Assembly: GCA_964016885.1 (NCBI GenBank)
Contig: CAXHJY010000151.1
Span: 62,001 to 126,000, forward strand
Origin: Eledone cirrhosa
Lineage: Eukaryota
Reading direction: 5' to 3'
Length of the DNA stretch: 64,000 nucleotides
Of the stretch, positions 3,254 to 62,279 are shown piece by piece; position 1 is the stretch's first letter, and every line of letters starts with the position of its first letter. Under the pieces are notes generated by a model. It saw only the letters and a program-made list of their open reading frames with translations, did no database searches and was not told the origin of the DNA. Both the position numbers and the translations under genes were made by a program.

Positions 3254-3341
3254 ACCCTAACCCTAAACCTAACCCCAACTCCAACTCTGACCCTAAACCT
3301 AACCCCAACCCCAACCCTAACCCTAACCCTAACCCTAACCC
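3254..3341. repeat. interstitial telomere-type (CCCTAA)n tract
   Basis: Degenerate then perfect CCCTAA units abutting the 169-bp array. Copy at 32973-33066. Confidence 0.8.
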
Positions 3342-4092
3342 ACGATAGAAGACGTTCGTTACCGCTGGAGCAACGCAAATTACTCCTCGGTTGACGCCAA
3401 AAACGAACGCCTTCTCGACGGCTAGCCGCATTTCGTGATCCGCCTTTCGATTGCGCTTCCGTCGCGGAAAAAGAATTGCCTTTATAGGCCGCCGCCGCCC
3501 GACCGGACCCACGATAGAAGACGTTCGTTACCGCTGGAGCAACGCAAATTACTCCTCGGTTGACGCCAAAAACGAACGCCTTCTCGACGGCTAGCCGCAT
3601 TTCGTGATCCGCCTTTCGATTGCGCTTCCGTCGCGGAAAAAGAATTGCCTTTATAGGCCGCCGCCGCCCGACCGGACCCACGATAGAAGACGTTCGTTAC
3701 CGCTGGAGCAACGCAAATTACTCCTCGGTTGACGCCAAAAACGAACGCCTTCTCGACGGCTAGCCGCATTTCGTGATCCGCCTTTCGATTGCGCTTCCGT
3801 CGCGGAAAAAGAATTGCCTTTATAGGCCGCCGCCGCCCGACCGGACCCACGATAGAAGACGTTCGTTACCGCTGGAGCAACGCAAATTACTCCTCGGTTG
3901 ACGCCAAAAACGAACGCCTTCTCGACGGCTAGCCGCATTTCGTGATCCGCCTTTCGATTGCGCTTCCGTCGCGGAAAAAGAATTGCCTTTATAGGCCGCC
4001 GCCGCCGCCCGACCGGACCCACGATAGAAGACGTTCGTTACCGCTGGAGCAACGCAAATTACTCCTCGGTTGACGCCAAAAACGAACGCCTT
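3341..4092 (+). repeat. 169/172-bp tandem repeat, ~4.4 units; rDNA spacer (IGS/ETS)-like subrepeats
   Basis: Units start at 3341, 3510, 3679, 3848, 4020; CpG-rich; ends ~360 bp upstream of the 18S 5' end. The spacer role is inferred from position. Confidence 0.85.
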
Positions 4093-4450
4093 CCGGTTCG
4101 GGCGACGTAAAAGTCTGTAGCCTTTTCGCCGATCCTCGACGATTATCCGCCTTCCGAACAACCGCCTTTCCGCCGTCACAGCAGTAGGTACTCGTCCGTC
4201 GTAATAGCCGTCATTTTAATGCAGGAGAAACGCCTAAATGCACTGCGATTGACGACGATCTACGACGCGCTTACTCTTCCTTGCTGCGACGAAGGTTTCG
4301 TTCGGCTTTTCGTCGTGGACCCGGTCAGGTCATGCCGCTGATCTCGCGTTGCGTCGTTACCGCTGGAGCAACGCAAATTACTCCTCGTTTAACGCCAACA
4401 TCGAACGCGCTTCGGTTCTCGGTCGTCGTGGTTTTGTTTCGTGCGGAAGA
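4093..4450 (+). other. 5'ETS-like leader
   Basis: GC/CpG-rich sequence directly preceding the 18S 5' terminus; positional inference. Copy at 33827-34176. Confidence 0.55.
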
Positions 4451-4635
4451 TACCTGGGTGATCCTGCCAGTAGTCATATGCTTGTCTCAAAGCTTAAGCC
4501 ATGCAAGTGGAAGTTCATGCCGTAAACGAAAATGGTGAAACCGCGAATGGCTCAGGAACCGGATCTAATCCTCGGGACCGTATTCCTCACCGCGAGGAGA
4601 GGATAACTGTGGCAATTCTAGAGCTAATACATGCA
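4451..4635 (+). pseudogene. 18S rRNA 5'-terminal fragment (~185 nt), diverged
   Basis: TACCTGGgTGATCCTGCCAGTAGTCATATGCTTGTCTCAAAGcTTAAGCCATGCA...GGTGAAACCGCGAATGGCTCA...GGATAACTGTGGCAATTCTAGAGCTAATACATGC matches the eukaryotic 18S 5' consensus. Confidence 0.93.
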
Positions 4636-4639
4636 ATTG

Positions 4640-7600
4640 AGATCGGAGAGGGAGCGATCCGTCTGCTTGATTCCGATAACGAACGAGACATTCGTATCCG
4701 AAAGAACGTTTGTCTGGAAACTGGTGCAGTCAGTGAGTCGAAAAAAAAATATCTCGGTGGTAGTAGCAAATATTCGAACGAGACATTCGTATGCGAAAGA
4801 ACGTTTGTCGGTGGTAGTAGCAAATATTCGAACGAGACATTCGTATGCGAAAGAACGTTTGTCTGGAAGTGGCGATCCATGCCCGGTGGATAGTTGGTTC
4901 CGGGTTTTACTATGATTGTTGCAAAACAGAAACTTAAAGGGATTGACAGAATTTGCGATTCCGGAGAGAGGGCGATCCGTCTGCTTGATTCCGATAACGA
5001 ACGAGACATTCGTATCCGAAAGAACGTTTGTCTGGAAACTGGTGAGTCAGTGAGTCGAAAAAAAAATATCTCGGTGGTAGTAGCAAATATTCGTATGCGA
5101 AAGAAAAGATCTCGGTGGTAGTAGCAAATATTCGAACGAGACATTCGTAGGCGAAAGAAAAATATCTCGGTGGTAGTAGCAAATATTCGAACGAGACATT
5201 CGTATGCGAAAGAACGTTTGTCTGGAAGTGGCGATCCATGCCCGGTGGATAGTTGGTTCCGGGTTTTACTATGATTGTTGCAAAACAAAAACTTAAAGGG
5301 ATTGACAGAATTTGCGATTCCGGAGAGAGGGCGATCCGTCTGCTTGATTCCGATAACGAACGAGACATTCGTATCCGAAAGAACGTTTGTCTGGAAACTG
5401 GTGAGTCAGTGAGTCGAAAAAAAAATATCTCGGTGGTAGTAGCAAATATTCGAACGAGACATTCGTATGCGAAAGAACGTTTGTCGGTGGTAGTAGCAAA
5501 TATTCGAACGAGACATTCGTATGCGAAAGAACGTTTGTCTGGAAGTGGCGATCCATGCCCGGTGGATAGTTGGTTCCGGGTTTTACTATGATTGTTGCAA
5601 AACAGAAACTTAAAGGGATTGACAGAATTTGCGATTACGGAGAGGGGGCGATCCGTCTGCTTGATTCCGATAACGAACGAGACATTCGTATCCGAAAGAA
5701 CGTTTGTCTGGAAACTGGTGAGTCAGTGAGTCGAAAAAAAAATATCTCGGTGGTAGTGGCAAATATTCGAACGAGACATTCGTATGCGAAAGAACGTTTG
5801 TCGGTGGTAGTAGCAAATATTCGAACGAGACATTCGTATGCGAAAGAACGTTTGTCTGGAAGTGGCGATCCATGCCCGGTGGATAGTTGGTTCCGGGTTT
5901 TACTATGATTGTTGCAAAACAGAAACTTAAAGGGATTGACAGAATTTGCGATTACGGAGAGGGGGCGATCCGTCTGCTTGATTCCGATAACGAACGAGAC
6001 ATTCGTATCCGAAAGAACGTTTGTCTGGAAACTGGTGAGTCAGTGAGTCGAAAAAAAAATATCTCGGTGGTAGTAGCAAATATTCGAACGAGACATTCGT
6101 ATGCGAAAGAACGTTTGTCGGTGGTAGTAGCAAATATTCGAACGAGACATTCGTATGCGAAAGAACGTTTGTCTGGAAGTGGCGATCCATGCCCGGTGGA
6201 TAGTTGGTTCCGGGTTTTACTATGATTGTTGCAAAACAGAAACTTAAAGGGATTGACAGAATTTGCGATTACGGAGAGGGGGCGATCCGTCTGCTTGATT
6301 CCGATAACGAACGAGACATTCGTATCCGAAAGAACGTTTGTCTGGAAACTGGTGAGTCAGTGAGTCGAAAAAAAAATATCTCGGTGGTAGTGGCAAATAT
6401 TCGAACGAGACATTCGTATGCGAAAGAACGTTTGTCGGTGGTAGTAGCAAATATTCGAACGAGACATTCGTATGCGAAAGAACGTTTGTCTGGAAGTGGC
6501 GATCCATGCCCGGTGGATAGTTGGTTCCGGGTTTTACTATGATTGTTGCAAAACAGAAACTTAAAGGGATTGACAGAATTTGCGATTACGGAGAGGGGGC
6601 GATCCGTCTGCTTGATTCCGATAACGAACGAGACATTCGTATCCGAAAGAACGTTTGTCTGGAAACTGGTGAGTCAGTGAGTCGAAAAAAAAATATCTCG
6701 GTGGTAGTAGCAAATATTCGAACGAGACATTCGTATGCGAAAGAACGTTTGTCGGTGGTAGTAGCAAATATTCGAACGAGACATTCGTATGCGAAAGAAC
6801 GTTTGTCTGGAAGTGGCGATCCATGCCCGGTGGATAGTTGGTTCCGGGTTTTACTATGATTGTTGCAAAACAGAAACTTAAAGGGATTGACAGAATTTGC
6901 GATTACGGAGAGGGGGCGATCCGTCTGCTTGATTCCGATAACGAACGAGACATTCGTATCCGAAAGAACGTTTGTCTGGAAACTGGTGAGTCAGTGAGTC
7001 GAAAAAAAAAATATCTCGGTGGTAGTAGCAAATATTCGTATGCGAAAGAAAAGATCTCGGTGGTAGTAGCAAATATTCGAACGAGACATTCGTAGGCGAA
7101 AGAAAAATATCTCGGTGGTAGTAGCAAATATTCGAACGAGACATTCGTATTCGAAAGAACGTTTGTCTGGAAGTTGCGATCCATGCCCGGTGGATAGTTG
7201 GTTCCGGGCTTTACTATGATTGTTGCAAAACAGAAACTTAAAGGGATTGACAGAATTTGCGATTCCGGAGAGGGGGCGATCCGTCTGCTTGATTTCGATA
7301 ACGAACGAGACATTCGTATCCGAAAGAACGTTTGTCTGGAAACTGGTGAGTCAGTGAGTCGAAAAAAAAAATATCTCGGTGGTAGTAGCAAATATTCGAA
7401 CGAGACATTCGTATGCGAAAGAACGTTTGTCGGTGGTAGTAGCAAATATTCGAACGAGACATTCGTATGCGAAAGAACGTTTGTCGGTGGTAGTAGCAAA
7501 TATTCGAACGAGACATTCGTATGCGAAAGAACGTTTGTCTGGAAGTGGCGATCCATGCCCGGTGGATAGTTGGTTCCGGGTTTTACTATGATTGTTGCAA

Positions 7601-8250
7601 AACAGAAACTTAAAGGGATTGACAGAATTTGCGATTCCAGAGAGAGGGCGATCCGTCTGCTTGATTCCGATAACGAACGAGACATTCGTATCCGAAAGAA
7701 CGTTTGTCTGGAAACTGGTGAGTCAGTGAGTCGAAAAAAAAATATCTCGGTGGTAGTAGCAAATATTCGAACGAGACATTCGTATGCGAAAGAACGTTTG
7801 TCTGGAAGTGGCGATCCATGCTCGGTGGATAGTTGGTTCCGGGTTTTACTATGATTGTTGCAAAACAGAAACTTAAAGGGATTGACAGAATTTGCGATTC
7901 CGGAGAGGGGGCGATCCGTCTGCTTGATTCCGATAACGAACGAGACATTCGTATCCGAAAGAACGTTTGTCTGGAAACTGGTGAGTCAGTGAGTCGAAAA
8001 AAAAATATCTCGGTGGTAGTAGCAAATATTCGTATGCGAAAGAAAAGATCTCGGTGGTAGTAGCAAATATTCGAACGAGACATTCGTATGCGAAAGAAAA
8101 ATATCTCGGTGGTAGTAGCAAATATTCGAACGAGACATTCGTATTCGAAAGAACGTTTGTCTGGAAGTTGCGATCCATGCCCGGTGGATAGTTGGTTCCG
8201 GGCTTTACTATGATTGTTGCAAAACAGAAACTTAAAGGAATTGACAGAAT
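4640..8250 (+). repeat. rRNA-mosaic tandem array (317-bp monomer; 263-372 bp variants; 54-bp subrepeat)
   Basis: TTGGTTCCGGG anchors at 4894, 5253, 5570, 5887, 6204, 6521, 6838, 7198, 7570, 7833, 8192. Contains 18S motifs (GAAACTTAAAGG.ATTGAC, CGATTCCGGAGAGGG, TTCCGATAACGAACGAGAC) and a 28S motif (ATCTcGGTGGTAGTAGCAAATATTC). Confidence 0.92.
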
Positions 8251-8280
8251 TTTCGAATCGACATCAACTCGGCTACGGCT

Positions 8281-8625
8281 ATCCCGTCGAGTACGAGAGT
8301 ATCGCGGGATCAGAGCAACGGTTTGCTAGGCTGCCTCTGAGCGATAACGGCTGAACGCCTCCTCTAAGCCGGAACCCTAGCCGGACCCGAGTTGTTTTTC
8401 GACAAGCTTCTCGACCTTCTTAAGGCCCATGCCTTAGTTTGGCGATTGCCGTCCGTTCGCCGACGGCGGCAGCGTCAGCGGAAATGCCATTCTGTGACGA
8501 CTACGACGATTCGTCGTCGTCGTCGTCCATTCGATTTCCTGAAAGAGATAGAGACTAAAGTGATCAAATTGTTCGGAGTTACGTGCTTAGTAGAGCAGCT
8601 ACCACACTGCAATCTATTGAGAGTT
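8281..8625 (+). pseudogene. 28S rRNA 3'-terminal fragment, strongly diverged
   Basis: Sarcin-ricin-like AGTACGAGAG (8290-8299), CTGAACGCCTC..TAAG (~8351-8368) and AGTAGAGCAGCTACCACACTGCAATCTATTGAGAGT (~8590-8625), colinear with the 28S 3' end. Confidence 0.8.
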
Positions 8626-9499
8626 TTCTGACGAACGATACAATCCGCCCACGTGGCGCCAGAAAGGGAGAAGAAAAGAAAAGTTAGACGCCGCCGATCG
8701 ATCGGTTCGTTGTTTTACGTGTACACAGCTTGTGTGTGTGTCTGTATGTGATACAAGCCGCCTATCCGTCTTCCAAGTAAGTTTTGTGTGTAGACTGCGG
8801 AAAGAAATCCAATCCGCCGTCTAGGCGGTTCTGCCGCCGACCCATACTTTTGCGAGTCGCTCCCGGGAAAGACAGGCGGCAAGACGGCGTGTATACACGA
8901 CGCCTTCCGTCTTCCGCCTCGAACCCGGGCAAACGTTCCTTTATTCGTCCACGCCTTCCCGCTTCGATCGCGAGAAAGTAATCAATCTGTTTTGTGTGTG
9001 TGTCTGTGTGTGATACAAATTTGTTTTCTTAATTTGATAACCATGAATTGTTTCAACACCGGCCCTTTTAAGGGCCACTTATATTTTCAATAATCAGTTT
9101 AAATGGGTTGCACCGTAGCCACTTGGTAATACACTGCAAATCTCCCGTCAATCTATGAAGGTTTTGTAGTAGATTAGATCAAAACACAATCAGCAAGACA
9201 GTAATGGAATGAATAATATAAACATTTGTTTATAATTAAAGCCTTAAGATGTCCCTCCCTCCCTCCCTTCCTCCCTTCCTTCCTTCCTTCCTTCCTTCCT
9301 TACGATATACACTTTAATAACATTGAAACTTATTTAATAAGTTTAAATTTTAAACACTTTTTATTCAGACGTACCGCGATAAGTAACTAGATATGTTCTA
9401 ACGAATAATCCGCGATGTGGCGAGGATTACCGCGATAGGAAATTAGATACGTTCCAAAGAAATATCCGCGAAAAGTGAACCGCGATATAGCGGGTTCAC

Positions 9500-9846: not shown

Positions 9847-10057
9847 GGTCGGAAAACGAACCATTCCCGGTTCGCTTTCGAAGCGGGTTTCCGAAAACAG
9901 CGCTTCTCTCGACCGGGCCCGTCGTCCGCTCGGCGGTGGTTTTCATCGTCCCAGGCACGGCTAACAGGCGGAGACGGGACAAACGCGCGTGTTCCTTTTT
10001 TTATCAGCCGCAGCGCCGTTCGTATATATGCTTAGGTTGTTTTTTTTTTAAATATCC

Positions 10058-10288
10058 TAAGTTAAGTTGGGGCTAAGTTAAGTTGGGGCTAAGTTAAGTT
10101 GAGGTTAAGTTGAGTTGGGGTTAAGTTAAGTGGGGGTTAAGTTAAGCTGGGGTTAAGTTAAGTTGAGGTTAAGTTAAGTTGGGGTTAAGTCAAGTTGGGG
10201 TTAAGTTAAGTTGGGGTTAAGTTAGGTTGGGGTTAAGTTAGGTTGGGGTTAAGTTAAGTTGGGGTTAAGTTAGGTTGCGGTTAAGTTA
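10058..10288 (+). repeat. G-rich 16-bp minisatellite (GGGGTTAAGTTAAGTT)n
   Basis: About 14 units read directly. Copy at 39575-39805. Confidence 0.9.
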
Positions 10289-13200
10289 CATTCGCCGCCG
10301 GACTTCAGCTTCCTCATTTAGCATGGGCAGTTTTTCTTGAAAATCACACCACACACAGCAAATGTGTGTCCGCACATGTACCAGTAATTACAGATCGATT
10401 CCGGTGAAAATTCACTGAAAACGGGCCATCCGGCCCTGTGCGTCGATCGTGGGCCGGCCGGATGTTGACGGATCGATGTGTAATTAGAAGTACATGTGCG
10501 GACACTCATTGGCTGTGCGTGGTATGCATTTCAGCAAGATATCTCCGTAACATCAAGAGTTATGGCTGTGGAGGCACACCTAGTCAAACGTAAACAAGGT
10601 CTGGAGCGTTTACGCTTCGCGATTTTGTTTACGTTTGACTAGGTGTGCCTCCACAGCCACAACTCTTGATGTTACGGAGATATCTTGCTGAAATGCATAC
10701 CGCGCACAGCCAATGAGTGTCCGCACATGTACTTCTAATTACACATCGATCCGTCAACATCCGGCCGGCCCACGATCGACGCACAGGGCCGGATGGCCCG
10801 TTTTCAGTGAATTTTCACCGGAATCGATCTGTAATTACTGGTACATGTGCGGAGACACATTTGCTGTGTGTGGTGTGATTTTCAAGAAAAACTGCCCATG
10901 CTAAATGAGGAAGCTGAAGTCCGCCGGCGAATGGTGTGCTTCGAAGAAAACTAATTCGAAAATGACCGTTTGCAGGCGGAGTAACCTTTTCGATCGTGGG
11001 CCAGCCGCCCGTGGTGGGATCCATCTGTAATTACTGGTACATGTGCGGACATACATTTGCTGTGTGTGGTGTGATTTTCAAGAAGAACTGCCCATGCTAA
11101 ATGAGGAAGCTGAAGTCCGCCGGCGAATGGTGTGCTTCGAAGAAAACTAATTCGAAAATGACCGTTTGCAGGCGGGGTAACCTTTTCGATCGTGGGCCAG
11201 CCGCCCGTGGTGGGATCCATCTGTAATTACTGGTACATGTGCGGACACACATTTGCTGTGTGTGGTGTGATTTTCGAGAAAGACTGCCCATGCTAAATGA
11301 GGAAGCTGAAGTCCGCCGGCGAATGGTGTGCTTCGAAGAAAACTAATTCGAAAATGACTATTTGCCGGCGGAATCACCTTTTCGGTCCTGGTCCGGCCGG
11401 ATCTTGCCGGATCGATCGGAAATTTGTGGACCATGTTCGGAAGGCCATTGTGCATGTGTGGTGAAAAAAATTTGTGTCGAAATCTTCTCGGAAAATAACG
11501 GATCGCCGGCGGAGATTGCCATTTCGATCGTGGGCCGGCCGGATCTTGTCGGATCGATTCGGACATATGTGCATCGTGTTCGCAAGGCCCTTGTCTATGT
11601 GTGGTGTGATTTTCATAAAGAAATTCCGAAAAACCCAGTTTTAAATCTGATTTCGCCAAAGAATTTTGGCTATCAGATCGGGTTGAAAGGTATGGTTTCA
11701 GGTCGATCTGAAAGTCTAAAATGGAATTCACTCGGTTAGCTAACTATTGATATTTCGGAGATATCTTTCTGAAAATCACACCACACACTCCCAATGAGTG
11801 TCTGCACATGTACCAGTAATTACAGATGGATCCCACCACGGGCGGCCGGCCCACGATCGAAAAGGTTACTCCGAAGCACACCATTCGCCGGCGGAATTCA
11901 TTTAGCATGGGCAGTTTTTCTCGAAAATCACACCACACACAGCCAATGAGTGTCCGCACATGTACCAGTAATTACAGATGGATCCCACCACGGGCGGCTG
12001 GCCCACGATCGAAAAGGTTACTCCGCCTGCAAACGGTCATTTTCGAATTCGTTTTCTTCGAAGCACACGATTCGCCGGCGGACTTCAGCTGCCTCATTTA
12101 GCATGGGCAGTTTTTCTCGAAAATCACACCACACACAGCAAATGTGTGTCCGCACATGTACCAGTAATTACAGATCGATTCCGGTGAAAATTCACTGAAA
12201 ACGGGCCATTCGGCCCTGTGCGTCGATCGTGGGCCGGCCGGATGTTGACGGATCGATGTGTAATTAGAAGTACATGTGCGGACACTCATTGGCTGTGCGT
12301 GGTATGCATTTCAGCAAGATATCTCCGTAACATCAAGAGTTATGGCTGTGGAGGCACACCTAGTCAAACGTAAACAAGCTCTGGAGCGTATACGCTTCGC
12401 GATTTTGTTTACGTTTGACTAGGTGTGCCTCCACAGCCACAACTCTTGATGTTACGGAGATATCTTGCTGAAATGCATACCACGCACAGCCAATGAGTGT
12501 CCGCACATGTACTTCTAATTACACATCGATCCGTCAACATCCGGCCGGCCCACGATCGACGCACAGGGCCGGATGGCCCGTTTTCAGTGAATTTTCACCG
12601 GAATCGATCTGTAATTACTGGTACATGTGCGGACACACATTTGCTGTGTGTGGTGTGATTTTCACGAAAAACTGCCCATGCTAAATGAGGAAGCTGAAGT
12701 CCGCCGGCGAATGGTGTGCTTCGAAGAAAACTAATTCGAAAATGACCGTTTGCAGGCGGAGTAACCTTTTCGATCGTGGGCCAGCCGCCCGTGGTGGGAT
12801 ACATCTGTAATTACTGGTACATGTGCGGACACACATTTGCTGTGTGTGGTGTGATTTTCGAGAAAGACTGCCCATGCTAAATGAGGAAGCTGAAGTCCGC
12901 CGGCGAATGGTGTGCTTCGAAGAAAACTAATTCGAAAATGACTATTTGCCGGCGGAATCACCTTTTCGGTCCTGGTCCGGCCGGATCTTGCCGGATCGAT
13001 CGGAAATTTGTGGACCATGTTCGGAAGGCCATTGTGCATGTGTGATGAAAAAAATTTGTGTCGAAATCTTCTCGGAAAATAACGGATCGCCGGCGAAGAT
13101 TGCCATTTCGATCGTGGGCCGGCCGGATCTTGTCGGATCGATTCGGACATATGTGCATCGTGTTCGCAAGGCCCTTGTCTATGTGTGGTGTGATTTTCAT

Positions 13201-15700
13201 AAAGAAATTCCGAAAAACCCAGTTTTAAATCTGATTTCGCCAAAGAATTTTGGCTATCAGATCGGGTTGAAAGGTATGGTTTCAGGTCGATCTGAAAGTC
13301 TAAAATGGAATTCACTCGGTTAGCTAACTTTTGATATATCGGAGATATCTTTCTGAAAATCACACCACACACTCCCAATGAGTGTCTGCACATGTACCAG
13401 TAATTACAGATGGATCCCACCACGGGCGGCCGGCCCACGATCGAAAAGGTTACTCCGAAGCACACCATTCGCCGGCGGAATTCATTTAGCATGGGCAGTT
13501 TTTCTCGAAAATCACACCACACACAGCCAATGAGTGTCCGCACATGTACCAGTAATTACAGATGGATCCCACCACGGGCGGCTGGCCCACGATCGAAAAG
13601 GTTACTCCGCCTGCAAACGGTCATTTTCGAATTCGTTTTCTTCGAAGCACACGATTCGCCGGCGGACTTCAGCTGCCTCATTTAGCATGGGCAGTTTTTC
13701 TCGAAAATCACACCACACACAGCAAATGTGTGTCCGCACATGTACCAGTAATTACAGATCGATTCCGGTGAAAATTCACTGAAAACGGGCCATTCGGCCC
13801 TGTGCGTCGATCGTGGGCCGGCCGGATGTTGACGGATCGATGTGTAATTAGAAGTACATGTGCGGACACTCATTGGCTGTGCGTGGTATGCATTTCAGCA
13901 AGATATCTCCGTAACATCAAGAGTTATGGCTGTGGAGGCACACCTAGTCAAACGTAAACAAGCTCTGGAGCGTATACGCTTCGCGATTTTGTTTACGTTT
14001 GACTAGGTGTGCCTCCACAGCCACAACTCTTGATGTTACGGAGATATCTTGCTGAAATGCATACCACGCACAGCCAATGAGTGTCCGCACATGTACTTCT
14101 AATTACACATCGATCCGTCAACATCCGGCCGGCCCACGATCGACGCACAGGGCCGGATGGCCCGTTTTCAGTGAATTTTCACCGGAATCGATCTGTAATT
14201 ACTGGTACATGTGCGGACACACATTTGCTGTGTGTGGTGTGATTTTCACGAAAAACTGCCCATGCTAAATGAGGAAGCTGAAGTCCGCCGGCGAATGGTG
14301 TGCTTCGAAGAAAACTAATTCGAAAATGACCGTTTGCAGGCGGAGTAACCTTTTCGATCGTGGGCCAGCCGCCCGTGGTGGGATACATCTGTAATTACTG
14401 GTACATGTGCGGACACACATTTGCTGTGTGTGGTGTGATTTTCGAGAAAGACTGCCCATGCTAAATGAGGAAGCTGAAGTCCGCCGGCGAATGGTGTGCT
14501 TCGAAGAAAACTAATTCGAAAATGACTATTTGCCGGCGGAATCACCTTTTCGGTCCTGGTCCGGCCGGATCTTGCCGGATCGATCGGAAATTTGTGGACC
14601 ATGTTCGGAAGGCCATTGTGCATGTGTGGTGAAAAAAATTTGTGTCGAAATCTTCTCGGAAAATAACGGATCGCCGGCGGAGATTGCCATTTCGATCGTG
14701 GGCCGGCCGGATCTTGTCGGATCGATTCGGACATATGTGCATCGTGTTCGCAAGGCCCTTGTCTATGTGTGGTGTGATTTTCATAAAGAAATTCCGAAAA
14801 ACCCAGTTTTAAATCTGATTTCGCCAAAGAATTTTGGCTATCAGATCGGGTTGAAAGGTATGGTTTCAGGTCGATCTGAAAGTCTAAAATGGAATTCACT
14901 CGGTTAGCTAACTATTGATATATCGGAGATATCTTTCTGAAAATCACACCACACACTCCCAATGAGTGTCTGCACATGTACCAGTAATTACAGATGGATC
15001 CCACCACGGGCGGCCGGCCCACGATCGAAAAGGTTACTCCGAAGCACACCATTCGCCGGCGGAATTCATTTAGCATGGGCAGTTTTTCTCGAAAATCACA
15101 CCACACACAGCCAATGAGTGTCCGCACATGTACCAGTAATTACAGATGGATCCCACCACGGGCGGCTGGCCCACGATCGAAAAGGTTACTCCGCCTGCAA
15201 ACGGTCATTTTCGAATTAGTTTTCTTCGAAGCACACCATTCGCCGGCGGACTTCAGCTTCCTCATTTAGCATGGGCAGTTTTTCTTGAAAATCACACCAC
15301 ACACAGCAAATGTGTGTCCGCACATGTACCAGTAATTACAGATCGATTCCGGTGAAAATTCACTGAAAACGGGCCATTCGGCCCTGTGCGTCGATCGTGG
15401 GCCGGCCGGATGTTGACGGATCGATGTGTAATTAGAAGTACATGTGCGGACACTCATTGGCTGTGCGTGGTATGCATTTCACTAAGATATCTCCGTAACA
15501 TCAAGAGTTATGGCTGTGGAGGCACACCTAGTCAAACGTAAACAAGGTCTGGAGCGTTTACGCTTCGCGATTTTGTTTACGTTTGACTAGGTGTGCCTCC
15601 ACAGCGACAACTCTTGATGTTACGGAGATATCTTGCTGAAATTCATACCACGCACAGCCAATGAGTGTCCGCACATGTACCTGTAATTACACATCGATCC
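10289..15700. repeat. palindromic higher-order satellite: 1584-bp period, 196/152-bp subunits in alternating orientation
   Basis: ORF periodicity 11826/13410/14994 and 12493/14077; the same ORF occurs on opposite strands (10318- and 10713+); hairpin centres at ~10611, 12391, 13975, 15559. Confidence 0.93.
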
Positions 15701-15811
15701 GACGACGGACAGAGTATTCGGTTTATTTTCTTGACATATTTCTTTACATATTGTCCAGGCATGCACTTTTTCCATGATTAGTTCTGTTGACGGCCCGCTT
15801 TCCAAAATACC

Positions 15812-26090: not shown

Positions 26091-26129
26091 ACCTGGCCCT
26101 TACCCTAACCCCAACCTCTTTGGTTTTCG

Positions 26130-26966
26130 TTTTCTCGACGGCTAGCCGCATTTCGTGATCCGCCTTTCGATTGCGCTTCCGTCGCGGCAAAAGAATTGCC
26201 TTTCCAGACCGCCGTCGCCCGACCGGACCCATGATAGAAGACGTTCGTTACCGTTGGAGCAACGCAAATTACTCCTCGGTTGACGCCAAAAACGAACGCC
26301 TTCCCGCCTCGCGCCGCCTTCTCCTCGCCGACCCTCGGCCTCGACGATTAGCCACTTTCCGTCACAGCAGTAGATACGCGTCCGTCGTAATAGCCGTCAT
26401 TTTAACGCAGGAGAAACGCCTAATTGCCCTGCACCGCGTTTGACGGCGATCTACGACGGCGACGATGCGCGCACTCTTCCTTGCTGCGACGAAGGTTTCG
26501 GCTTTTCGTCGTGGACCCGGTCAGGTCATGCCGCTGACCTCGCGTTACGGCGACGCGAGAAGACGTTCGTTACCGCTGGAGCAACGCAAATTACTCCTCG
26601 GTTGACGCCAAAAACGAACGCCTCGCGCCGCCGCTTCCTCCTCGGCCTCGACGATTAGCCGCTTTCCGTCACAGCAGTAGATACGCGTCCATCGTAATAG
26701 CCGTCATTTTAACGCAGGAGAAACGCCTTGACGACGATATACGACGGGTCGACGACGCGCGCACTCTTTCTGCTGCGACGAAGGTTTTGGCTTTTCGTTG
26801 TGGACCCGGTCGGGTCATGCCTCTGACCTCGCGTTGCGTCGCCACCGCCGCGGCGGGCTTGGGTTTAGCCGTAGCTACCCTCGTTTTGCCAACGGCGACG
26901 CGAGAAGACGTTCGTTACCGCTGGAGCAACGCAAATTACTCCTCGGATGAGGCCAAAAACGAACGC
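26130..26966 (+). repeat. diverged orphan copy of the spacer/ETS-like region
   Basis: Shares the 169-bp unit sequence and the ETS-like GTCACAGCAGTAG..GTAATAGCCGTCATTTTAA block (twice); no 18S follows. Confidence 0.85.
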
Positions 26967-32413: not shown

Positions 32414-33065
32414 GCTTCTTTAGAACACATCTGCTGTATTCAGACCTGGAGCGGAGATGGGCTCCACCAAGTTTTAAAAATTGCCCTTTAAGCGCTGTAT
32501 GTCAATATGGTGCCCCTATGATTCCCTCCCTCAGGAGTTATGGGACCATAGATACTGTCAATTGTAAAGAATAACAGAGATATTCAGTGCTAGTGTGGTG
32601 TTCTGTCAGTTGTGGAGATTGATGAATCTAAACAGAAATATCAACAGCACTTTTCATTTCTGAGTAACACATTTGTTACCAAGTGCTGCATGGCTGGAAT
32701 GAAAATCAGTGCTGTGAAAACCAAGACATTCATCCTCTCAAGGAAGCTTGTGCAGTGCACTCTACATGTAAATGGAGTCCCACTGAAGCAGGTAGAAAAG
32801 TTCATGTATCTCGAAGCTGTGTTCACGAGTGATGACAGAGACGGCAAAGGCACAACACACAACAGAAGAAAAGAACAATGACAATTATTATTATTATTAT
32901 TATTATTATTTGTTTTATTAGTTTTATTATAATAAAAATTGTGCTGTTAGTTTGCTTGCTATACCATCATGTACCCTAACCCTAAACCTAACCCCAACTC
33001 CAACTCTGACCCTAAACCTAACCCCAACCCCAACCCCAACCCTAACCCTAACCCTAACCCTAACC

Positions 33066-33826
33066 CACGATAGAAGACGTTCGTTACCGCTGGAGCAACG
33101 CAAATTACTCCTCGGTTGACGCCAAAAACGAACGCCTTCTCGACGGCTAGCCGCATTTCGTGATCCGCCTTTCGATTGCGCTTCCGTCGCGGAAAAAGAA
33201 TTGCCTTTATAGGCCGCCGCCGCCGCCCGACCGGACCCACGATAGAAGACGTTCGTTACCGCTGGAGCAACGCAAATTACTCCTCGGTTGACGCCAAAAA
33301 CGAACGCCTTCTCGACGGCTAGCCGCATTTCGTGATCCGCCTTTCGATTGCGCTTCCGTCGCGGAAAAAGAATTGCCTTTATAGGCCGCCGCCGCCGCCC
33401 GACCGGACCCACGATAGAAGACGTTCGTTACCGCTGGAGCAACGCAAATTACTCCTCGGTTGACGCCAAAAACGAACGCCTTCTCGACGGCTAGCCGCAT
33501 TTCGTGATCCGCCTTTCGATTGCGCTTCCGTCGCGGAAAAAGAATTGCCTTTATAGGCCGCCGCCGCCGCCCGACCGGACCCACGATAGAAGACGTTCGT
33601 TACCGCTGGAGCAACGCAAATTACTCCTCGGTTGACGCCAAAAACGAACGCCTTCTCGACGGCTAGCCGCATTTCGTGATCCGCCTTTCGATTGCGCTTC
33701 CGTCGCGGAAAAAGAATTGCCTTTATAGGCCGCCGCCGCCGCCCGACCGGACCCACGATAGAAGACGTTCGTTACCGCTGGAGCAACGCAAATTACTCCT
33801 CGGTTGACGCCAAAAACGAACGCCTT
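33066..33826 (+). repeat. 172-bp spacer-like tandem repeat, copy 2
   Basis: ORF starts 33240, 33412, 33584, 33756 are 172 bp apart. Confidence 0.85.
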
Positions 33827-34176
33827 CCGGTTCGGGCGACGTAAAAGTCTGTAGCCTTTTCGCCGATCCTCGACGATTATCCGCCTTCCGAACAACCGCC
33901 GTCACAGCAGTAGGTACTCGTCCGTCGTAATAGCCGTCATTTTAATGCAGGAGAAACGCCTAAATGCACTGCGATTGACGACGATCTACGACGCGCTTAC
34001 TCTTCCTTGCTGCGACGAAGGTTTCGTTCGGCTTTTCGTCGTGGACCCGGTCAGGTCATGCCGCTGATCTCGCGTTGCGTCGTTACCGCTGGAGCAACGC
34101 AAATTACTCCTCGTTTAACGCCAACATCGAACGCGCTTCGGTTCTCGGTCGTCGTTGTTTTGTTTCGTGCGGAAGA

Positions 34177-34361
34177 TACCTGGGTGATCCTGCCAGTAGT
34201 CATATGCTTGTCTCAAAGCTTAAGCCATGCAAGTGGAAGTTCATGCCGTAAACGAAAATGGTGAAACCGCGAATGGCTCAGGAACCGGATCTAATCCTCG
34301 GGACCGTATTCCTCACCGCGAGGAGAGGATAACTGTGGCAATTCTAGAGCTAATACATGCA
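34177..34361 (+). pseudogene. 18S rRNA 5'-terminal fragment, copy 2
   Basis: Same sequence as 4451-4635. Confidence 0.93.
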
Positions 34362-34365
34362 ATTG

Positions 34366-37300
34366 AGATCGGAGAGGGAGCGATCCGTCTGCTTGATTCC
34401 GATAACGAACGAGACATTCGTATCCGAAAGAACGTTTGTCTGGAAACTGGTGCAGTCAGTGAGTCGAAAAAAAAATATCTCGGTGGTAGTGGCAAATATT
34501 CGAACGAGACATTCGTATGCGAAAGAACGTTTGTCGGTGGTAGTAGCAAATATTCGAACGAGACATTCGTATGCGAAAGAACGTTTGTCTGGAAGTGGCG
34601 ATCCATGCCCGGTGGATAGTTGGTTCCGGGTTTTACTATGATTGTTGCAAAACAGAAACTTAAAGGGATTGACAGAATTTGCGATTACGGAGAGGGGGCG
34701 ATCCGTCTGCTTGATTCCGATAACGAACGAGACATTCGTATCCGAAAGAACGTTTGTCTGGAAACTGGTGAGTCAGTGAGTCGAAAAAAAAATATCTCGG
34801 TGGTAGTAGCAAATATTCGAACGAGACATTCGTATGCGAAAGAACGTTTGTCGGTGGTAGTAGCAAATATTCGAACGAGACATTCGTATGCGAAAGAACG
34901 TTTGTCTGGAAGTGGCGATCCATGCACGGTGGATAGTTGGTTCCGGGTTTTACTATGATTGTTGCAAAACAGAAACTTAAAGGGATTGACAGAATTTGCG
35001 ATTACGGAGAGGGGGCGATCCGTCTGCTTGATTCCGATAACGAACGAGACATTCGTATCCGAAAGAACGTTTGTCTGGAAACTGGTGAGTCAGTGAGTCG
35101 AAAAAAAAATATCTCGGTGGTAGTAGCAAATATTCGAACGAGACATTCGTATGCGAAAGAACGTTTGTCGGTGGTAGTAGCAAATATTCGAACGAGACAT
35201 TCGTATGCGAAAGAACGTTTGTCTGGAAGTGGCGATCCATGCCCGGTGGATAGTTGGTTCCGGGTTTTACTATGATTGTTGCAAAACAGAAACTTAAAGG
35301 GATTGACAGAATTTGCGATTACGGAGAGGGGGCGATCCGTCTGCTTGATTCCGATAACGAACGAGACATTCGTATCCGAAAGAACGTTTGTCTGGAAACT
35401 GGTGAGTCAGTGAGTCGAAAAAAAAATATCTCGGTGGTAGTGGCAAATATTCGAACGAGACATTCGTATGCGAAAGAACGTTTGTCGGTGGTAGTAGCAA
35501 ATATTCGAACGAGACATTCGTATGCGAAAGAACGTTTGTCTGGAAGTGGCGATCCATGCCCGGTGGATAGTTGGTTCCGGGTTTTACTATGATTGTTGCA
35601 AAACAGAAACTTAAAGGGATTGACAGAATTTGCGATTCCGGAGAGAGGGCGATCCGTCTGCTTGATTCCGATAACGAACGAGACATTCGTATCCGAAAGA
35701 ACGTTTGTCTGGAAACTGGTGAGTCAGTGAGTCGAAAAAAAAATATCTCGGTGGTAGTAGCAAATATTCGAACGAGACATTCGTATGCGAAAGAACGTTT
35801 GTCGGTGGTAGTAGCAAATATTCGAACGAGACATTCGTATGCGAAAGAACGTTTGTCTGGAAGTGGCGATCCATGCTCGGTGGATAGTTGGTTCCGGGTT
35901 TTACTATGATTGTTGCAAAACAGAAACTTAAAGGGATTGACAGAATTTGCGATTCCGGAGAGGGGGCGATCCGTCTGCTTGATTCCGATAACGAACGAGA
36001 CATTCGTATCCGAAAGAACGTTTGTCTGGAAACTGGTGAGTCGAAAAAAAAATATCTCGGTGGTAGTAGCAAATATTCGTATGCGAAAGAAAAGATCTCG
36101 GTGGTAGTAGCAAATATTCGAACGAGACATTCGTAGGCGAAAGAAAAATATCTCGGTGGTAGTAGCAAATATTCGAACGAGACATTCGTATGCGAAAGAA
36201 CGTTTGTCGGTGGTAGTAGCAAATATTCGAACGAGACATTCGTATGCGAAAGAACGTTTGTCGGTGGTAGTAGCAAATATTCGAACGAGACATTCGTATG
36301 CGAAAGAACGTTTGTCTGGAAGTGGCGATCCATGCCCGGTGGATAGTTGGTTCCGGGTTTTACTATGATTGTTGCAAAACAGAAACTTAAAGGGATTGAC
36401 AGAATTTGCGATTCCGGAGAGGGGGCGATCCGTCTGCTTGAATCCGATAACGAACGAGACATTCGTATCCGAAAGAACGTTTGTCTGGAAACTGGTGAGT
36501 CAGTGAGTCGAAAAAAAAATATCTCGGTGGTAGTAGCAAATATTCGTATGCGAAAGAAAAGATCTCGGTGGTAGTAGCAAATATTCGAACGAGACATTCG
36601 TAGGCGAAAGAAAAATATCTCGGTGGTAGTAGCAAATATTCGAACGAGACATTCGTATTCGAAAGAACGTTTGTCTGGAAGTTGCGATCCATGCCCGGTG
36701 GATAGTTGGTTCCGGGTTTTACTATGATTGTTGCAAAACAGAAACTTAAAGGGATTGACAGAATTTGCGATTCCGGAGAGGGGGCGATCCGTCTGCTTGA
36801 TTCCGATAACGAACGAGACATTCGTATCCGAAAGAACGTTTGTCTGGAAACTGGTGAGTCAGTGAGTCGAAAAAAAAAATATCTCGGTGGTAGTAGCAAC
36901 TATTCGAACGAGACATTCGTATGCGAAAGAACGTTTGTCGGTGGTAGTAGCAAATATTCGAACGAGACATTCGTATGCGAAAGAACGTTTGTCTGGAAGT
37001 GGCGATCCATGCCCGGTGGATAGTTGGTTCCGGGTTTTACTATGATTGTTGCAAAACAGAAACTTAAAGGGATTGACAGAATTTGCGATTCCGGAGAGAG
37101 GGCGATCCGTCTGCTTGATTCCGATAACGAACGAGACATTCGTATCCGAAAGAACGTTTGTCTGGAAACTGGTGAGTCAGTGAGTCGAAAAAAAAATATC
37201 TCGGTGGTAGTAGCAAATATTCGAACGAGACATTCGTATGCGAAAGAAAAATATCTCGGTGGTAGTAGCAAATATTCGAACGAGACATTCGTATGCGAAA

Positions 37301-37759
37301 GAACGTTTGTCTGGAAGTGGCGATCCATGCCCGGTGGATAGTTGGTTCCGGGTTTTACTATGATTGTTGCAAAACAGAAACTTAAAGGGATTGACAGAAT
37401 TTGCCATTCCGGAGAGGGGGCGATCCGTCTGCTTGATTCCGATAACGAACGAGACATTCGTATCCGAAAGAACGTTTGTCTGGAAACTGGTGAGTCAGTG
37501 AGTCGAAAAAAAAATATCTCGGTGGTAGTAGCAAATATTCGTATGCGAAAGAAAAGATCTCGGTGGTAGTAGCAAATATTCGAACGAGACATTCGTATGC
37601 GAAAGAAAAATATCTCGGTGGTAGTAGCAAATATTCGAACGAGACATTCGTATTCGAAAGAACGTTTGTCTGGAAGTTGCGATCCATGCCCGGTGGATAG
37701 TTGGTTCCGGGCTTTACTATGATTGTTGCAAAACAGAAACTTAAAGGAATTGACAGAAT
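34366..37759 (+). repeat. rRNA-mosaic tandem array, copy 2
   Basis: Anchors at 34620, 34937, 35254, 35571, 35888, 36347, 36706, 37024, 37342, 37701. Confidence 0.92.
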
Positions 37760-37789
37760 TTTCGAATCGACATCAACTCGGCTACGGCT

Positions 37790-38134
37790 ATCCCGTCGAG
37801 TACGAGAGTATCGCGGGATCAGAGCAACGGTTTGCTAGGCTGCCTCTGAGCGATAACGGCTGAATGCCTCCTCTAAGCCGGAACCCTAGCCGGACCCGAG
37901 TTGTTTTTCGACAAGCGTCTCGACCTTCTTAAGGCCCATGCCTTAGTTTGGCGATTGCCGTCCGTTCGCCGACGGCGGCAGCGTCAGCGGAAATGCCATT
38001 CTGTGACGACTACGACGATTCGTCGTCGTCGTCGTCCATTCGATTTCCTGAAAGAGATAGAGACTAAAGTGATCAAATTGTTCGGAGTTACGTGCTTAGT
38101 AGAGCAGCTACCACACTGCAATCTATTGAGAGTT
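37790..38134 (+). pseudogene. 28S rRNA 3'-terminal fragment, copy 2
   Basis: Same as 8281-8625 (offset 29509) with a few substitutions. Confidence 0.8.
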
Positions 38135-39805
38135 TTCTGACGAACGATACAATCCGCCCACGTGGCGCCAGAAAGGGAGAAGAAAAGAAAAGTTAGACGC
38201 CGCCGATCGATCGGTTCGTTGTTTTACGTGTACACAGCTTGTGTGTGTGTCTGTATGTGATACAAGCCGCCTATCCGTCTTCCAAGTAAGTTTTGTGTGT
38301 AGACTGCGGAAAGAAATCCAATCCGCCGTCTAGGCGGTTCTGCCGCCGACCCATACTTTTGCGAGTCGCTCCCGGGAAAGACAGGCGGCAAGACGGCGTG
38401 TATACACGACGCCTTCCGTCTTCCGCCTCGAACCCGGGCAAACGTTCCTTTATTCGTCCACGCCTTCCCGCTTCGATCGCGAGAAAGTAATCAATCTGTT
38501 TTGTGTGTGTGTCTGTGTGTGATACAAATTTGTTTTCTTAATTTGATAACCATGAATTGTTTCAACACCGGCCCTTTTAAGGGCCACTTATATTTTCAAT
38601 AATCAGTTTAAATGGGTTGCACCGTAGCCACTTGGTAATACACTGCAAATCTCCCGTCAATCTATGAAGGTTTTGTAGTAGATTAGATCAAAACACAATC
38701 AGCAAGACAGTAATGGAATGAATAATATAAACATTTGTTTATAATTAAAGCCTTAAGATGTCCCTCCCTCCCTCCCTTCCTTCCTTCCTTCCTTCCTTCC
38801 TTCCTTCCTTCCTTCCTTACGATATACACTTTAATAACATTGAAACTTATTTAATAAGTTTAAATTTTAAACACTTTTTATTCAGACGTACCGCGATAAG
38901 TAACTAGATATGTTCTAACGAATAATCCGCGATGTGGCGAGGATTACCGCGATAGGAAATTAGATACGTTCCAAAGAAATATCCGCGAAAAGTGAACCGC
39001 GATATAGCGGGCTCACCAGCCAGTGTATTACTGGTACTTTATTTTATCGACCCCCATAAGGATGAAAGGCAAAGTTAACTGTGCAATAACAAAGGGAGAT
39101 AACCTCGTCTTTTTTTTTTTACGGAGTTATTTCCCTTTAAATTTTATCTATTACTTATGATGATACAATTTAATCAGTTCTTAGCTGTCGAGACACTGCA
39201 TCCTTTAAAACCTCCATGGAACAAGCTACCTGCAACAGTTGTTAGCTGTCGAGACACTGCATCTTTTAAAACCTCCATGGAACAAACTACCTGCATCAGT
39301 TGTTAGGGTCTGAGTTCAAATCACGCCGAGGAGGTTAACTTTGCCTTTCATCCTTACGGGGTCGGTCGGAAAACGAACCATTCCCGGTTCGCTTTCGAAG
39401 CGGGTTTCCGAAAACAGCGCTTCTCTCGACCGGGCCCGTCGTCCGCTCGGCGGTGGTTTTCATCGTCCCAGGCACGGCTAACAGGCGGAGACGGGACAAA
39501 CGCGCGTGTTCCTTTTTTTATCAGCCGCAGCGCCGTTCGTATATATGCTTAGGTTGTTTTTTTTTTAAATATCCTAAGTTAAGTTGGGGCTAAGTTAAGT
39601 TGGGGCTAAGTTAAGTTGAGGTTAAGTTGAGTTGGGGTTAAGTTAAGTGGGGGTTAAGTTAAGCTGGGGTTAAGTTAAGTTGAGGTTAAGTTAAGTTGGG
39701 GTTAAGTCAAGTTGGGGTTAAGTTAAGTTGGGGTTAAGTTAGGTTGGGGTTAAGTTAGGTTGGGGTTAAGTTAAGTTGGGGTTAAGTTAGGTTGCGGTTA
39801 AGTTA

Positions 39806-61917: not shown

Positions 61918-62279
61918 GTGTGTGTATATATATATATATCTGTCTCTCTCCCTGTCTCTCACTCTGCCTCTATCCCCCCTCTCTCTCTCTGTCTCTCCCC
62001 CCCCCCCTCTCTCTCTCTCTAGTAGTAGAGAGAGAGAGAGATATAAACGTATAACCCTAAACCTAACCCATCTCTCTCACTCTCTCTCTCCCCCTCTCTC
62101 TCTCTTCTCTCTCTCACTCTCCCTCTACCCCCCCTCTCTCTATTTCTCTCTCTCTCCAGTAGTAGAGAGAGACAAAGAGAGAGAGAGATATAAACGTATA
62201 ACCCTAACCAAACCCTAACCCAACTCTAACCCAACCCTAACCCTAACCCCAACCCTAACTCTAACCTAACCCTAACCCA

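Follow-up and report, generated by a model that had tools for sequence, protein, structure and literature searches.

A tandem array in the genome of Eledone cirrhosa is genuine and out of the ordinary, and it probably arose as a by-product of broken rDNA. It lies in a window of 64,000 nt (positions 62,001 to 126,000 of contig CAXHJY010000151.1), where it takes the place of ~9.9 kb of one rDNA unit. We consider it fairly likely that a satellite built from short pieces of 18S, ITS1, and 28S has here replaced the interior of a broken rDNA unit, that the pieces were joined at the DNA level by deletion between microhomologies or by template switching and were amplified afterwards, and that the product is probably nonfunctional. 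rDNA-derived satellites and rDNA pseudogenes are known; what is new here is that the repeated pieces come from the coding core and not from spacer subrepeats.

The array (4640-8250) comprises 11 monomers with a spacing of 263-372 bp, mostly 317 bp, and TRF gives a period of 317 with 6.1 copies at 99% over 5100-7038, so that both the place and the period proposed in an earlier note on this DNA stand. TRF also gives a 54-bp sub-repeat inside the array, which consists of module E and a copy of module C. Pieces were assigned by reference to an intact host rDNA unit on contig C25 of the same genome (assembly size 3.0 Gb), in which the 18S is ~2,860 nt long and the 28S ~6,350 nt including an insert; four further host 18S copies are 99.1-99.4% identical to one C25 copy. 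By visual comparison, 16 bases in a row of the host 18S agree with a primer specific to cephalopods (PMC8074623), which makes a cephalopod host likely. The array and the modules of one monomer are as follows.

4640..8250, + strand: mosaic array of 11 monomers, entered at module A (18S 581) and left at module H (~18S 1985)
4869..4901, + strand: module F, 28S 1403-1420 with short pieces of 28S 1556-1565 and 1528-1537, the last two being 10-mers and less secure
4896..4945, + strand: module G, 18S 1833-1880, with a 23-bp exact core
4940..4961, + strand: module H, 18S 1960-1970 exact, likely continuing with a deletion to ~1985
4956..4973, + strand: module A, 18S 575-592, by match to the host rDNA
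4972..5007, + strand: module B, 18S 2026-2064, 38/39 in the first monomer
5009..5027, + strand: module C, ITS1 288-306, 19/19 exact
5026..5068, - strand: module D, likely an inverted and shortened ITS1 379-to-306, by alignment to the host ITS1
5107..5142, + strand: module E, 28S 2089-2124, 36/36 exact

Exact 13-mers to the host rDNA cover 0.46 of the 225-bp nonredundant monomer, compared with a mean of 0.004 and a maximum of 0.116 in 1,000 dinucleotide shuffles (0/1,000 attain 0.46), and the longest exact match between monomer and rDNA is 26 as against a shuffle maximum of 15 (n = 300). The pieces derive from both ribosomal subunits and from ITS1, a spacer absent from the mature ribosome. Module D is the least clear of the longer assignments: among 2,086 windows taken from the two strands, the reverse complement of ITS1 306-379 aligns best, albeit by a small margin (31.1 vs. 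29.7 for the next), and ITS1 306-379 adjoins the source sequence of module C in the host, so that a forward ITS1 piece appears to be followed by the adjoining ITS1 stretch in inverted orientation.

The earlier note had described a scrambled mosaic of 18S and 28S that is not colinear with rRNA. Mapping to the host rDNA confirms the noncolinearity and the mosaic, the shuffles (0.46 vs. a maximum of 0.116) show that the matches are not due to chance, and five of the six piece labels proposed there were right (18S 1833-1880, 1960-1970, 575-592, and 2026-2064, and 28S 2089-2124). The sixth, CATTCGTAT/GCGAAAG, had been called weakly 18S-like and is instead the 19/19 exact piece of ITS1 288-306; 28S 1403-1420, the short pieces at ~28S 1528-1565, and the inverted ITS1 stretch had been overlooked. 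Scrambling is also too strong a word, quite apart from the omission of the ITS1 piece and its likely inverted neighbor, as the order is less random than that: it amounts to three deletion-riddled passes in gene order and one duplication junction, most junctions being forward deletions.

The monomers are arranged head to tail, have been homogenized within the array (period 317 at 99%), and are traceable to the host rDNA unit, as is characteristic of an rDNA-derived satellite. They do not consist of IGS subrepeats of the tomato type, and because their pieces map to 18S, ITS1, and 28S we regard the array as a variant of the rDNA-derived satellites.

Four junctions are secure, with pieces of at least 11 bp on each side, and all have sequence in common between the two sources: GGAGC (5 bp) at A-B, ATTGAC (6 bp) at G-H, CGAACGAGAC (10 bp) at B/E, and TTCG (4 bp, after one mismatch) at E-C. 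Side-by-side reading thus verifies the junction words named in the earlier note (GGAGC, ATTGAC, and (CG)AACGAGA(C)). Less secure are the junction of 28S 1537 with G (GGTTCC, 6 bp), that of 28S 1556 with 1528 (7 bp with one change), and that of H with A (CGATTC, 6 bp, if H spans a short deletion), and about half of the 12-14 junctions have 0-3 bp or no clear homology. Among 200,000 random rDNA junctions, 2.1% have a homology of at least 4 bp, giving P = 9e-5 for at least 4 of 12, although the homologies were called post hoc with the data already in view. The 4-10 bp at the four secure junctions are the excess of microhomology expected of a repair or template-switch product.

The array is embedded in the remains of a single rDNA unit, together with which it forms a cassette.

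3254..3341, + strand: telomere-type tract, (TAACCC)n, which joins the rDNA at a common ACCC
3338..4093, + strand: 4.5 copies of a 169-bp repeat, rDNA-derived and probably 5′ETS, with its source between the promoter-like motif and the 18S
4094..4450, + strand: shortened 5′ETS, from which ~0.8 kb of the host ETS is gone
4451..4641, + strand: 18S rDNA 1-188, with 4 substitutions (189 sites) and 2 indels relative to the host
8261..8681, + strand: 28S from 5886 to its 3′ end and the start of the 3′ETS, with 32 substitutions over 386 aligned sites (8261-8650) and 7 gaps
8730..9026, + strand: shortened 3′ETS/IGS pieces, which stop short of the first copy of the promoter-like motif in the spacer
33063..38535, + strand: another copy of the cassette, containing 10 monomers and belonging to the following macro-repeat unit ~29.5 kb downstream

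The cassette holds no complete set of 18S, 5.8S, and 28S, only 18S 1-188 and the 3′ end of the 28S being left. Both flanks of the array show decay, including several deletions. The 18S remnant is identical in 12/12 other aligned cassette loci, and changes in the 28S remnant run from GC to AT in 17 cases and from AT to GC in 5. A promoter-like motif, TATATAGGG, which is a putative Pol I start signature, is present in intact units on C25, C12, and C4, in spacer repeats of ~700 bp and once 1.5-2.2 kb before the 18S; it is absent from the C2 stretch examined and from window positions 1-33000. The 5′ end of the cassette corresponds to a point 215 nt downstream of the position of this motif in intact units. 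Spacer promoters were considered as an identity for the 169-bp repeats and rejected because the repeats lie downstream of the promoter-like motif.

The rDNA end of the cassette, made of IGS pieces, is followed by a foldback repeat. An Rfam hit to RF00032 (Histone3) at 9056-9100 was considered as a histone 3′ stem-loop and rejected, there being no histone ORF among the ORFs of at least 95 aa; the region 9030-9100 belongs to a dispersed repeat, long and palindromic (foldback or MITE-like), of which it makes up one arm and which is concentrated on C18 and has 131 exact matches, many of them as inverted pairs. This repeat is a source of false histone stem-loop calls. Further rDNA-like sequence in the window includes a 28S expansion-segment fragment at 9852-10058 (28S ~696-904, 86%), directly followed by a 16-bp TAAGTTAAGTTGGGGT repeat, and a second 5′ETS remnant at 26093-26966 (83-97% to the host), which is preceded by a short telomere-like tract and belongs to the same macro-repeat unit as the array. 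Units of 196 bp make up a 1,584-bp higher-order repeat at 10289-15701, in which there are long inverted segments (~1.1 kb, 94-95%).

The macro-repeat that carries the cassette occurs twice in the window, and its copies mostly lie 30-50 kb apart. The cassette 3′ junction has 61 exact copies on eight contigs: 44 on C28 (124.7-126.5 Mb), a single one on C18, and 16 spread over six other contigs. The junction that occurs once per monomer is found 994 times in the assembly, which corresponds to ~1,000 monomers, and there are 3,125 occurrences of the word next to the ends of modules B and E. A 28S motif has 17 copies in the assembly and an ITS1 motif 12, the 12 ITS1 loci being rDNA places already known. 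The cassette counts are floors because the C28 block adjoins an assembly gap at its start, next to a 16-bp satellite. In sequencing run X1, cassette-specific contigs have a depth of ~4,100-4,200 and a host-type 28S contig one of 3,373, depths that are not copy numbers and only hint that cassette and 28S are of a similar order.

The start of the C28 block (124685001-124695000) is a 200-N gap by a kilobase-scale array of the 16-bp repeat that changes strand; the location may be heterochromatin of pericentromeric or subtelomeric type. The lone cassette on C18 (6720500-6740499) is a rearranged copy: it has at least 24 monomers, breaks off inside the 28S remnant, and is followed after 3 kb by another cassette start, which is truncated.

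All 16 distinct cassette copies that were read enter the array in the same way (ETS repeats, 18S 5′ end, then B), and all seven copies traced to the end leave it via G-H into the 28S; the mosaic therefore predates both amplifications. Entry at A and exit at H likewise indicate a whole number of units, with H-to-A as the duplication junction. At G-H, the host letter survives in the last monomer of 5/5 complete arrays scanned, whereas 69/69 other scanned monomers have the derived letter, and the first monomer of the window retains host sequence at A-B. The mosaic origin, the joining at microhomologies, and the precedence of joining over amplification that the earlier note suggested are thus all supported.

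We propose that a tract of rDNA broke and that repair or restarted replication would then have hopped between short homologies to leave one mosaic. The source may have been deletions across neighboring tandem rDNA units, or template switching at a broken fork. The first pass would have run through 18S 1-188, 575, and 2026, ITS1, inverted ITS1, and 28S 2089, the second through ITS1 and 28S 1403-1565, and the third through 18S 1833 and 1960 to 28S 5886-end, with two back-jumps joining the passes, one via the 10-bp homology of B and E and the other via GGTTCC. The 5′ end, 215 nt beyond the promoter-like motif, would next have gained telomere repeats. Tandem duplication would have followed, for the mosaic via CGATTC, in which H and A are homologous, and for the 54-bp sub-repeat via CGAACGAGAC, and the surrounding block of 30-50 kb would finally have been amplified and homogenized. 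We infer this order because intermediates are missing from the places searched: neither the array edges nor three stretches close by contain one, and two monomer junction patterns had no match on C1-C17 among the first 100 places listed. The inverted ITS1 stretch fits a DNA-level step of the kind seen in the inverted same-locus insertions described in the accessible part of a study of break repair in yeast (PMC11724301).

All pieces except one lie on the sense strand, which counts against the DNA-level explanation, as a cDNA origin would give the same. The missing intermediates, the many junctions with no clear homology, the small margin of the inverted ITS1 match, and the location of eight of the nine pieces in the conserved core also weigh against it. 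Reverse transcription is the strongest of the alternatives, albeit an unlikely one: an R2-like non-LTR reverse transcriptase would have copied pre-rRNA while jumping at short homologies, and the chimeric cDNA, once telomere repeats had capped it, would have been inserted and, at a later time, amplified. Besides the strand bias, this route is favored by the position of the cassette wholly between the promoter-like motif of the gene and its first spacer copy, which means that it could represent a primary transcript, and by a related insert in 15 of the 17 assembled 28S copies at what is presumably the R2 target site, ~1.2 kb long where the end was observed. The insert measures 1.16-1.37 kb in the 10 copies with an observed end (28S ~3711-4950 in C25); of the remaining copies, one is uninterrupted and one otherwise altered. 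An Rfam search of the insert returned chance-level hits only; it may be a nonautonomous R2-site element, and uninterrupted 28S arrays may have been collapsed in the assembly. Double template jumps by LINE enzymes have been described (PMC2104539), but the present mosaic would need a dozen jumps compared with the two of that case, as far as the accessible part of the paper describes it. The likely inverted ITS1 stretch would moreover require a DNA step, reading of the cassette 3′ boundary revealed neither a poly(A) tail nor a retroelement 3′ end, and the cassette extends ~1.9 kb beyond the 28S end.

Selection for an rRNA-like RNA, acting as a decoy for snoRNPs or assembly factors or as antisense small RNAs that silence rDNA, seems to us an improbable reason for keeping the array. 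It is doubtful that the locus polymerized the 18S and 28S core motifs of a dead unit into thousands of copies and transcribes rRNA mimics or antisense small RNAs, and there is equally little chance that such RNAs titrate ribosome assembly factors or silence faulty rDNA copies, such as the 15 of 17 28S copies with an insert. Selection would be in keeping with the location of eight of the nine retained pieces in the conserved core, which constitutes 33-44% of the unit without the insert, with the identity of two pieces to the host (36/36 and 38/39), and with the abundance of the word after B and E (3,125 occurrences vs. 17 assembled 28S copies). High identity is partly built in, however, because piece borders were set by the match. 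The conserved core was defined as the segments alignable to outgroup eukaryotic rDNA, for which 7 of 40 loci, chosen by length, were used, and once clustering is allowed for the enrichment is weak: four of five clusters (P 0.04-0.12), or three of four when the piece that served to select the outgroups is omitted (P 0.11-0.22). Selection is also at odds with the absence of the promoter-like motif, with a monomer fold like that of shuffles (z -0.34, no special RNA fold being found), and with the free variation of monomer length and sub-repeat number, lengths ranging over 263-587 bp across 71 monomers. SNORD24 gave no match as a guide for module E, and the controls gave no signal either. Hairpin avoidance (P 0.16) and GC avoidance (P 0.06) were each tried as reasons for the retention of these pieces and rejected. 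An exact match to a eukaryotic 28S motif is present in at least 40 contigs of prokaryote assemblies; seven of them were aligned and proved to be eukaryotic rDNA, likely contamination of those assemblies.

One lead on expression comes from run X9, made from organism A but from a different sample of unrecorded kind, in which the monomer contig has a depth of 114 and host-type 28S contigs ~3,467, with 8205-8279 and 8505-9104 uncovered; the pattern resembles that of an RNA run, although uncovered parts prove nothing. Among the listed runs with monomer sequence none was an RNA run, which speaks neither for nor against expression.

An artefact of assembly or library preparation is very improbable. 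Chimeras of rRNA pieces can form in libraries, and the C28 block begins at an assembly gap, but the 61 exact 3′ junctions are spread over eight contigs with copy-specific variation. Contigs of the public run X1, possibly made from the sample behind the assembly, show 0-1 differences from the cassette, and runs X9, X16, and X4 all have sequence across the tandem joint. Part of the monomer is contained in 20 of 24 listed runs (17 studies), other organisms among them, and in none of four added same-sample runs; the two other-organism runs compared, X16 and X4, have the same monomer at a depth of 17-19. We read these occurrences as cross-contamination rather than conservation. The viral contigs searched for the monomer gave no matches. 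A repeated 106-aa peptide is hardly credible as the product of the array, for although an ORF runs across each 317-bp monomer and stop triplets on both strands number 14 as against 22.5 in shuffles (P 0.002, a single post hoc test on positions 7484-7746), the longest open frame is ordinary (P 0.19), the lengths of 71 monomers fall into differing frames (42/26/3), and no Pfam family was found at cut-off.

As far as the accessible parts of the cited papers describe them, several known systems share features with the rDNA-derived satellite proposed here. The tomato satellite arose by amplification of an IGS subrepeat with elimination of the rRNA coding sequence (PMC2679016); like it, the present array was born in altered rDNA units, polymerized by recombination, and homogenized, whereas its monomer itself consists of 18S and 28S coding pieces plus ITS1. 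Human rDNA pseudogenes, dispersed or at array edges, are likewise displaced and decaying rDNA and a by-product of array turnover, but they are degrading near-full-length units or scattered strings (PMC5381670), in contrast to an array that is rearranged internally, tandem, and homogeneous between copies. Insertions at yeast breaks have similarly short templated pieces and microhomology at junctions, and their inversion of two pieces from the same locus has a likely counterpart in the array; they are laboratory products of about two fragments (PMC11724301), compared with at least nine pieces of one gene that are fixed and amplified ~1,000-fold. The lamprey Germ1/rpt200 element resembles the cassette in that it is a large repeat in which a tandem repeat separates 18S from fragmented 28S, but its 18S is intact and rpt200 is a spacer repeat, not an rRNA mosaic (PMC5381345); Germ1 has been linked to programmed DNA loss (PMC5381345). 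SINE28 (PMC10946416) and the chimeras made by LINE template switching (PMC2104539) are also RNA pieces fused into a repeated element, yet these are retroposed and have two or three parts, whereas the present array is tandem and mostly at one locus. Among the papers listed by full-text searches, mostly outside the subscription literature, no title or opening of an abstract describes a satellite monomer made of 18S, ITS1, and 28S pieces.

Conserved 18S and 28S motifs have far more dead copies than assembled genes in this species, and these dead copies could distort rDNA counts based on primers, probes, or k-mers as well as FISH. Were the array both transcribed and conserved, it would represent an rRNA-mimic locus of a new kind. 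Here the origin of a satellite is on record while all its parent sequences persist in the genome, with junctions legible at single-base resolution and ancestral letters kept in the edge monomers, and it indicates that the rDNA coding core, beyond the spacer alone, can seed a satellite.
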